In this document: positions 26,240 through 27,879 of the stretch, one piece after another
Position numbering within the stretch: the first letter of the stretch is position 1
Layout of the letters: every line of letters begins with the position of its first letter
DNA from: Tequatrovirus BCH953P4
Sequence record: OZ035789.1
Length of the DNA: 64,000 nt
Strand: one strand, 5' to 3'
Notes under the pieces: model-generated
What the model saw: only the letters and a program-made list of their open reading frames with translations
Told to the model about the DNA's origin: nothing
Databases searched by the model: none
Position numbers and translations under genes: made by a program

Positions 26240-27019
26240 TTAATTAAAAATATATACTTCATCAGTTCCATTCTTTTCTTTGGAATGATATATGTTAAAG
26301 ACGTATTTTTTATTAAGATGCTTAACATTATATTTTTTAGACCATTCTTTAAGAAGAGTGTTTTCCTTTCCGTGATGCTCTAAAACATTCGACAACCCAA
26401 ATTTTATTCCTCTATCATTTAAAGAGTCTAAAAGATTTAAAAGGTCTTTTTCTTCTTCTTCTGACCAAAATTTATTATAATCAGCAACTGTTATAAGATA
26501 CGGAGGGTCCACATATACAAAATCGCCGTCTAAAATTTTAACATCTTTAAAATGCAATGAACTAAAAATTATTTTATCACAATTTTGCTTAAAGTGATTA
26601 AAGCGTTTTTCACTATTTTTGTTTATAGTTCTTTTTCCAAACGGAGTAGTAAAATTTCCTTTATCGTTTATACGAATCATATTACTAAATCCGTGAAAAT
26701 GAAGAACATAAAGTAAAAGAGGATCTCTAGTTTTATTATAATCTTCACGTAATTTCAAAAACTCTTCTTTTGATGTTTTTGATAGTTTATATTGCTTTAT
26801 TACTTTTAAAACGTCATCCCATGATACATTAATAAGACGCTTATACATTTCAATAATTGGTTCTTGAATATCATTAGCCAATACAGGGCCATTGACGTTC
26901 AAAGACACTGATAAACCTCCACAAAATAAATCCACAAATCTGTCATATTTCGGAAAGTGAGATTTGAGTTCAGGTAATAATGATTGTTTATTACCTGTAT
27001 ACGCGATAGCTCCTAGCAT
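26240..27019 (-). CDS. dam: DNA adenine (GATC) methyltransferase Dam (259 aa)
   Basis: ORF track; DPPY and FCGG motifs; sequence recognised as T-even Dam. Confidence 0.92.
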
Positions 27020-27579
27020 TATATTCTCTCATTTATTGCAGCAAAAAACGAATTATATAATTCTTCATCATATGTATTTGATAGTAATACTAACACGTTT
27101 TGTGATTTAGCATATTCATTAAACCTTGCTTGGATAGTTGGATTATCAGTAAATGATTCTCTTTTTGTCCATTTATTACGTGGATAATATCCGCATGGCA
27201 AAAAATCTAATATCATCAATGACACAGGGTTTTCAGTTTTTGTGTATTCTTTTAATTTCTCTTTATCTTCTAAATATATTCCAACCGAATCAATAGCTGT
27301 ACCTCCACCAACTTGATGTTTAATTTCAATTATATGCTTTTTACCATTGCGAGAAATAACAATATCAAATCTTCTAGTACGCTTCTTAGTTATAAAATTC
27401 GAACAAAATAAATTATTTGATTTTTCAGTATCATCGGTTAAAACCATTTTTTCTTGATAACTAACTGAACAATCAGTGAAATATTCTTTTACTTTATTAA
27501 GTATGAAATTTTCAACCACGGCAGATATTTTATATGAATCTCCGTTTAAAGCCATTTCATGCACAATTTTATTAATCAT
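27019..27579 (-). CDS. Hypothetical protein (186 aa) with PD-(D/E)xK nuclease-like signature, translationally coupled to dam
   Basis: ORF track; ATG with SD GAGGA; motif RRFDIVIS...HIIEIKHQ (D72, E85-x-K87); stop overlaps dam ATG (TAATG). Confidence 0.6.
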
Positions 27580-27604
27580 TATATCATCCTCAGCAATTTA
27601 TTTT

Positions 27605-27634
27605 ATAATACCATAACAAGCTGAGAAAGTAAAC
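27605..27634 (-). promoter_or_regulatory. Early promoter driving the 186-aa ORF and dam (-35 GTTTACT, 17 bp, -10 TGGTATTAT)
   Basis: Plus ATAATA-CCA (27605-27613) and AGTAAA (27628-27633). Confidence 0.6.
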
Positions 27635-27678
27635 AAATTTATGAAATTTGTGATAAATATTAATTTAAAGGAGGACAT

Positions 27679-27879
27679 ATGGTACAAAAATTAATGGCAC
27701 TTGTTAATGCCATAAAAGGTAATAAAAAACGTATAGCTTTTACTATTTCTGCTATGGTAGGAATTTTACTCTGGAACTTTATTTTATCACCAATTGCAAT
27801 TGCGCATGGTGTTAATATTCCAGTAGTTACTCTTGATACATTCGTAGATCTAGCATTTGCTTTAGTTGGGTTAATTTAA
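27679..27879 (+). CDS. Small hydrophobic protein (66 aa), divergent from the dam operon
   Basis: ORF track; ATG preceded by AAAGGAGGA; two predicted TM segments; stop overlaps gene 61 stop. Confidence 0.5.
   Translation: MVQKLMALVNAIKGNKKRIAFTISAMVGILLWNFILSPIAIAHGVNIPVVTLDTFVDLAFALVGLI

Follow-up and report, generated by a model that had tools for sequence, protein, structure and literature searches.

Several described systems resemble the locus considered here. Type II restriction-modification (R-M) enzymes of the DpnII/MboI kind, with the methyltransferase DpnM, cut unmethylated GATC and have a D12-class methyltransferase partner, the same class as T4 Dam. Type IIP endonucleases of the MunI/EcoRI kind (structures 1D02 and 1CKQ) have partner methyltransferases of the AATT type. 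Among lytic viruses, chlorella virus PBCV-1 encodes CviAI, a GATC endonuclease blocked by adenine methylation, together with a protective Dam-like methyltransferase, and the presumed target in chlorella viruses is host DNA, which is unmethylated at GATC. T2 and T4 Dam are established GATC-specific enzymes. A 2025 review discusses T4 Dam with the orphan methyltransferases and calls its in vivo function unclear (PMC12707154). We examined a 64,000-nucleotide stretch of Tequatrovirus BCH953P4 (record OZ035789.1; hereafter the window), in which a 186-codon open reading frame (ORF186) immediately precedes dam. We propose, on sequence and modelling grounds, that ORF186 and dam together constitute a type II R-M-like cassette carried by the phage, with a nuclease that is probably GATC-specific and blocked by methylation, a reading to which we give a probability of about 60%. 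Such a pair would differ from MunI and EcoRI in having a partner of the GATC Dam type and in being encoded by a lytic phage, from DpnII in size (186 as compared to 288 aa) and in belonging to a family found only in phages, and from CviAI, to which it can be likened by description, in that GATC in its enterobacterial host already carries Dam methylation and the phage DNA bears hydroxymethylation and glucosylation as well.

Both genes lie on the minus strand. ORF186 occupies positions 27019–27579, and dam (26240–27019) encodes a 259-aa D12-class N6-adenine DNA methyltransferase (PF02086, E = 4e-51) that is 98% identical to T4 Dam; base 27019 is common to the ORF186 stop codon and the dam start codon (TAATG). 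These coordinates, the 186-aa length and the overlap had been given in an initial annotation of the locus and were reproduced by ORF calling and by reading the sequence, as was its Shine-Dalgarno element, GAGGA at 27587–27591 (minus strand), 7 nt 5′ of the ORF186 ATG. Farther 5′ on the same strand lies a promoter-like site (27605–27634) consisting of GTTTAC, a spacer of 17–18 nt and a TG-extended TATTAT (TGgTATTAT), with 9 of 12 consensus matches in addition to the TG; the site is kept in T2, and a promoter is annotated at the equivalent position in one GenBank record (phage Lutter). The segment is of a Tequatrovirus (T2/T4-like), and its sequence over this locus is ∼98% identical to that of phages such as vB_EcoM-fFiEco06.

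ORF186 corresponds to the entirety of phrog_8706 (E = 6e-116). By tblastn it was found in 162 phage records, in 153 of them at no less than 80% coverage; identity was at least 95% in 152 records and at least 99% in 112, and most of the latter among those listed span the full length. Full-length homologues extend to 64% (phage MX01), 63%, 57%, 49%, 41–44% (Klebsiella Jiaodavirus), 32% and 27% identity, with lengths of 186–190 aa throughout except for the two most distant members (225–227 aa). The ratio of nonsynonymous to synonymous substitution rates (dN/dS) was 0.10–0.19 for the closest informative pairs, and because synonymous sites are near saturation the constraint is, if anything, understated. 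ORF186 is thus a real gene under purifying selection and more than a chance reading frame.

The AlphaFold2 model of ORF186 (mean pLDDT, the per-residue confidence score, 80.3; pTM, the predicted template-modeling score, 0.79) comprises, in order, a helix (residues 15–33), three strands (38–47, 67–77 and 80–88), helices (95–113) and a further strand (119–124). This is the α/β core with a mixed sheet and the helix–three strands–helix–strand order of a PD-(D/E)XK nuclease. E23 falls on the first long helix, and D72 and E85-x-K87 on neighboring strands, as in the PD-(D/E)XK core. Every significant Foldseek match to the model was a PD-(D/E)XK nuclease. The nearest solved structure was MunI, a type II restriction endonuclease, followed by BstEII, PfoI, PspGI, Bse634I, BsoBI, NgoMIV, Cfr10I, AgeI, SgrAI and EcoRI, and the list also held the PD-(D/E)XK nucleases Can2, McrC and Bax1. 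An alignment of nine family sequences, reaching down to 27% identity, shows no variation at the candidate catalytic residues E23, D72, E85 and K87, nor at Q42, R69, H88, Q89, the run G93-T-A-I-D97-S98, P118, S120 and D125. The nuclease core with D72 and E85-I-K87 picked out in the initial annotation is therefore upheld in its numbering, in the invariance of its residues and in its fold, with the fold searches giving PD-(D/E)XK nucleases and a type II enzyme as the best solved match.

Sequence comparison did not place ORF186 in a described family. Although its model is structurally close to MunI, a member of the MunI/EcoRI group, no sequence similarity to these enzymes was statistically supported. 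By eye, E85-I-K-H-Q89 ... G93-T-A-I-D-S98 of ORF186 is like E111-A-K-H-Q115 ... G140-N-A-I-E-R145 of EcoRI (the EcoRI sequence was checked against PDB), with the ∼24-residue EcoRI segment between the two motifs (116–139) lacking in ORF186; however, an hhalign probability of 0.2% leaves this visual likeness as all that remains of EcoRI homology. The family profile gave only noise when compared with all PDB chain sequences (no other match at E≤10), the NCBIfam scan gave no meaningful match, and no curated restriction endonuclease family in Pfam or NCBIfam was matched above threshold. Homing endonucleases (GIY-YIG seg and HNH mob types) were rejected because ORF186 has no corresponding Pfam or PHROG match and its fold is PD-(D/E)XK, and a MutH/Sau3AI-like nickase was ruled out on grounds of fold and hidden Markov models (HMMs), there being no specific MutH likeness in ORF186. 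It is safe to say that ORF186 represents a new family of minimal, restriction-endonuclease-like proteins, with MunI as the closest structure solved so far.

The family is very small, and its members were found only on contigs of T4-like phages. A HMMER search of 1.84 billion cluster representatives gave 11 matches at E≤0.001, nine of them family members or fragments and two spurious (one repeat protein and one assembly chimera), and a second search, with a wider profile to which the most distant members had been added, brought no further relatives. A scan relying on two conserved motifs detected no relative among 185,579 bacterial and archaeal species, each represented by a single genome. Scans of viral and metagenomic sequences added only close copies and copies of the Jiaodavirus type, and all family contigs with interpretable neighbors belong to T4-like phages. 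In two database entries (P0008 and P0010), the C-terminal part of ORF186 is joined to unrelated N-termini, epimerase-like and AsnA-like, respectively; these are probably assembly chimeras. A 765-aa repeat protein (P0016) has seven weak matches and appears to be spurious.

In every relative with a readable context, a D12-class methyltransferase gene lies directly 3′ of the ORF186 homologue, abutting or overlapping it. We count eight independent contexts. At the 61/56 locus, stop and start share one base in the window and likewise in MX01. Next to gene 61, one base is shared in P0002, and the genes abut directly in P0006. In Klebsiella Jiaodavirus the pair lies between denB and ndd with a 7-bp overlap, and in P0014 it lies directly upstream of rIIA-rIIB with a 20-bp overlap. 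The remaining two are on short contigs, with overlaps of 35 bp (P0011) and 4 bp (P0009, in which the downstream gene is cut by the contig end and has no Pfam call). Because nuclease and methyltransferase are found together at three or more genome positions in T4-like phages, the pair must have moved as a unit. The identities of the two proteins to those of the window also drop together (nuclease/methyltransferase: 64/76, 63/70, 57/72, 41/61, 32/54 and 27/52%). Adjacent and co-inherited endonuclease and methyltransferase genes, the arrangement expected of R-M systems, are thus what is observed, and the nuclease-methyltransferase architecture seen in the initial annotation proves to be a conserved two-gene unit.

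An alignment of the window methyltransferase, T4 Dam and the partner methyltransferases shows DPPY (171–174), K11, F111, S112, R116, P126 and R130 to be invariant. The last six are reportedly the residues that contact GATC in the T4 Dam-DNA structures (Horton et al. 2005). GATC specificity has probably been kept throughout the partner methyltransferases, as far as these aligned residues can indicate.

Comparison with the classical T-even phages reversed part of the initial annotation, which had T4 dam simply beside gene 61 and ORF186 as an insertion relative to T4. The BLAST alignment of T4 to the window runs up to position 27106 on the dam side and resumes at position 27647 toward gene 61, the two segments overlapping by 8 bp. 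The window has two copies of the 8-bp direct repeat ATCACAAA on the minus strand, an upstream copy at 27647–27654 and a downstream copy at 27099–27106, the latter within ORF186 at codons ∼158–160. In a multiple alignment of the window, T4, T2 and ECML-134, T4 has a single copy (ATCGCAAA), and the 548 bp between the two window copies are gone. The alignment thus identifies in T4 a 548-bp deletion between direct repeats, which took the promoter-like site and ORF186 codons 1 to ∼157. T4 retains the last ∼29 codons ahead of dam, so that its 61-dam interval holds a deletion scar; it contains no orthologue with a known non-nuclease role. T4 Dam is therefore solitary through deletion, whereas the window Dam is the second gene of a pair.

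T2 has the whole of ORF186 in a form frameshifted at the C-terminus (181 aa, ending ...SFLLQ before the stop), which uncouples it from dam and leaves 13 nt between the two. Each of the four T2 records, among them the sequence M22342 of 1988, shows the frameshift, and the match covers only residues 1–179. From the alignment and the T2 annotation, the site of change is cgTTTTTT at 27043–27050 (minus strand), where a G-to-A change accompanies the loss of one T from the T-run (near 27043–27048); both changes are common to T2 and T4. In T6 and ECML-134, the entire stretch 26220–27667 is missing. We take this stretch, containing the promoter-like site, ORF186 and dam, as the presence/absence cassette, on the basis of BLAST against ECML-134 and the ECML-134 and T6 annotations. 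ORF186 remnants were also found in KarlGJung and in FN/Manna/PD112, the remnants in wild phages covering residues 159–186 or 122–179. Together with the T4 deletion and the T2 frameshift, these constitute several independent loss alleles.

Approximately 704 records match the locus. Dam was found at ≥90% identity in 180 and ORF186 at ≥95% identity in 152, so that ∼84% of the dam genes of T4 type follow an intact ORF186. In a minority, made up of T4 and a few remnant-bearing wild phages, dam stands alone, and most Tequatrovirus genomes have neither gene. The description of such a module as unusual in a T-even phage was therefore overstated: it is intact in ∼152 of ∼180 T4-type Dam records, T2 has a frameshifted copy, and one record had already been labeled accordingly, the phage Shinka entry that calls ORF186 a “putative DpnII restriction endonuclease.” Whoever annotated that record had thus already spotted the DpnII likeness, and a prediction may exist in REBASE.

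Taken as an R-M-like cassette, the locus would work as follows. ORF186 and dam would be transcribed early from their own promoter, with their translation coupled. ORF186 would be a small Mg2+-dependent endonuclease, probably a homodimer by analogy with MunI, cutting GATC that lacks N6-methyladenine (m6A) to leave 4-nt 5′ overhangs, and Dam would serve as the antidote by marking GATC in the phage genome itself. Dam methylation is present in enterobacterial hosts, and T-even DNA contains glucosyl-hydroxymethylcytosine. Because the host chromosome is already methylated, the likely targets would be other DNA in the infected cell, namely unmethylated GATC on plasmids or on phages infecting the cell at the same time, dam-less T-even relatives among them. 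The cassette would also stabilize itself as a selfish unit, and the nuclease gene would decay repeatedly while dam stays, the “orphan” Dam of T4 being one such remnant.

A number of observations weigh against this reading, the first of them concerning membership in the DpnII family. Models from three HMM libraries (DpnII, RE_BanI and REase_II) gave sub-threshold restriction endonuclease matches over the catalytic core of ORF186, and these matches speak for the nuclease fold and active site. Pfam DpnII (PF04556) matched the window protein with 16.8 bits (E = 0.0045) and 6 of 10 family members, the best being P0009 with 22.5 bits; all of these scores are below the gathering threshold of 23 bits. 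Pfam RE_BanI was also matched below threshold, and PADLOC REase_II was matched with E = 9e-5. The PF04556 match spans only profile positions ∼125–235 of 278. For direct comparison, the DpnII bait was a sequence 99% identical to a database protein with PF04556, and 18 DpnII family members were aligned. The two families were paired by hhalign with a probability of only 24.5% (E = 8e-4, 90 columns). The alignment sets E23 against E152, RRFDIVI against KRFDFVI (D72/D201) and IEIK against IEVN (E85/E214), and places K87 opposite an invariant Asn (N216) of DpnII. ORF186 thus lacks the full DpnII architecture, which runs to ∼280 aa with an N-terminal region and invariant GRKNRTG and E-x-N...GSK motifs. 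In neither the alignment nor the hhalign comparison did the N-terminal ∼125 residues of DpnII and its invariant GRKNRTG motif have a counterpart in ORF186. Furthermore, a DpnII model of moderate quality (pLDDT 69) had BstEII and NgoMIV as its nearest structures, with MunI at rank 44. With the Pfam threshold missed, the hhalign probability low and the nearest structures different, membership of ORF186 in the DpnII/MboI family is not established.

The putative GATC specificity of ORF186 is suggested solely by its partner methyltransferase. Depletion of GATC does not help to assign it. The window contains 74 GATC sites when 213 are expected (observed/expected ratio [O/E] 0.35), making GATC the most depleted palindromic tetramer (the next, TCGA, has 0.63). 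However, the O/E in the first 50 kb of T6, which lacks the cassette, is 0.33, and other T4-like loci range from 0.05 to 0.36. These counts point to long-term selection against GATC in T4-like genomes, which, because T6 is equally depleted, is not attributable to ORF186; as evidence of ORF186 specificity the depletion, though compatible with pressure from a GATC-directed nuclease, is non-discriminating, and it could equally have come from host MutH/Dam or from other enzymes acting on GATC.

The remaining difficulties concern expression and need. The early promoter assigned to 27605–27634 in the initial annotation has a consensus site at that position and an annotation in one record, but sigma-70-like sites in the region number 13 as compared to 13.0 expected from shuffled sequences. 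With no promoter enrichment, the site stands as a consensus match only. The reading is weakest at the biological target: a classical m6A-blocked GATC enzyme would find no obvious abundant one, because the host is methylated and T-even DNA is hypermodified, and Dam may be unnecessary for protecting the phage itself. T4 DNA contains 0.4–0.5% m6A, and T2 and T4 DNA both carry the modification (PMC7653180). The nuclease is also dispensable in the laboratory, as its repeated loss (T4 and T2) indicates.

A more specific form of the R-M reading assigns the cassette to conflict between phages. T-even Dam would be the antidote half of a GATC R-M cassette rather than a device against host restriction, and the nuclease would cut unmethylated GATC, including hydroxymethylcytosine-containing sites, in dam-less T-even co-infectors. 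Such relatives make up most Tequatrovirus genomes, T6 among them. We regard this version as speculative and give it perhaps one part in five of our belief. If it were true, Dam-only phages such as T4 would be immune “cheaters,” and it would account both for the three-state polymorphism (both genes, methyltransferase only, neither) and for a T4 Dam without known in vivo function.

An alternative that overlaps in part with the R-M reading, sharing some of its biochemistry and differing in biological role, is a selfish mobility or exclusion element comparable to the free-standing homing endonucleases of T-even phages. The nuclease would cut cassette-less relatives in mixed infection, repair templated by the genome that has the cassette would spread it or linked markers, and Dam would give self-immunity. 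At the 56-61 locus, 1,448 bp are cleanly present or absent as a cassette, as such an element would produce, the same pair occupies three unrelated loci in different T4-like genera, and T4 has the homing endonuclease gene segF at this very locus. The flanking gene 56 is also divergent, with 74% identity to ECML-134 as compared to 98.7% on the gene 61 side. However, ORF186 has no GIY-YIG or HNH similarity, a 4-bp site would be cut throughout a competitor genome rather than at a single homing site, cutting of hydroxymethylcytosine-containing GATC remains hypothetical, and GATC depletion is no stronger in dam-less T6. We therefore consider this explanation improbable.

Somewhat more doubtful still is a nuclease guided by methylation to host DNA. 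ORF186 would cut Dam-methylated GATC (or another site) in plain-cytosine DNA and be blocked by hydroxymethylcytosine or its glucosylation, with Dam completing the methylation of the host chromosome and so marking it for breakdown while phage DNA is spared. This would give the enzyme a target where an m6A-blocked one finds none in an already methylated host, and would suit genes that appear early, when T-even phages start to degrade host DNA, as well as the strict linkage of ORF186 to Dam and a Dam whose in vivo role is still described as unclear (PMC12707154). The model, however, shows one compact catalytic domain without a methyl-reading domain; DpnI has an added winged helix for that purpose (PMC12707154). 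The nearest structures are classical type IIP enzymes, and a nuclease gene followed by a methyltransferase gene with overlapping stop and start is the usual layout of classical R-M systems. Moreover, T2 and T4 DNA itself bears m6A (PMC7653180), so that the safety of the phage would rest wholly on its cytosine modification.

Least probable is a non-catalytic or decaying relic, in which a protein with the nuclease fold would have come to act solely as a partner of Dam, binding DNA or regulating (e.g., in translational coupling or targeting), or would be on the point of loss: repeated loss and damage in T4, T2 and other phages, the small size of 186 aa and the lack of a curated restriction endonuclease family above threshold would fit, but E23, D72, E85, K87, H88 and Q89 are invariant across 27–64% identity, dN/dS is 0.10–0.19, length is conserved, 112 records share ≥99% identity, and there are active type II enzymes of similar size (the solved MunI chain has 200 residues).

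Gene 61 (primase; 27876–28904) and gene 56 (dCTPase; 25661–26194), both on the minus strand, flank the locus. Between gene 61 and ORF186 lies a hydrophobic 66-aa ORF (27679–27879, plus strand; phrog_2024), which converges on gene 61 and shares 4 bp with the stop end of that gene. The initial annotation counted this ORF as part of the insertion. It is intact in T4 (64 of 66 residues identical; unannotated in NC_000866, at 17738–17938), is called “dam.1” in the T6 record and is kept in ECML-134. Because it is present in all three whether or not dam is, the sequences make it conserved backbone, a neighbor outside the cassette. In the phage Lutter record, an 8-bp promoter is annotated just upstream of this ORF on the same strand. 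At 27694–27713 on the minus strand, which is the early one, a terminator-like hairpin precedes a T-run (ATGGCATTAACAAGTGCCAT TAATTTTTGT); it is located ∼160 nt 3′ of gene 61 and is antisense to the 66-aa ORF at its 5′ end. Gene 61 transcripts could end there, which would explain a separate promoter-like site for ORF186-dam.

Compared over 25600–26220, gene 56 is unusually divergent in the window (89% identity to T4), while the gene 61 side is ∼98% identical. Between gene 56 and soc, the window lacks both segF, which T4 has there, and two small ORFs carried by T2, T6 and ECML-134. As judged from these differences, the locus is a hot spot of recombination or replacement. A further length polymorphism near the cassette concerns gene 61.2: the ORF in its position (29073–29429, minus strand) encodes a short form of 118 aa, as compared to 108 aa in T2 and 208 aa in T4, T6 and ECML-134.

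The architecture of an R-M pair is familiar; what appears to be new is a very small, phage-only nuclease family in a lytic phage with hypermodified DNA. In the full-text literature we found no paper describing the ORF186 gene. Classical T-even genetics may have missed it, because the gene is deleted in T4 and frameshifted in T2. At 186 aa the predicted enzyme would be among the smaller of its kind, and if it tolerates hydroxymethylcytosine, it would provide a tool for mapping GATC in modified DNA and an example of R-M between competing lytic phages. T4 Dam, among the best-studied of DNA methyltransferases, would be recast as the remnant of a two-gene cassette, and the purpose of T-even Dam would become directly testable.

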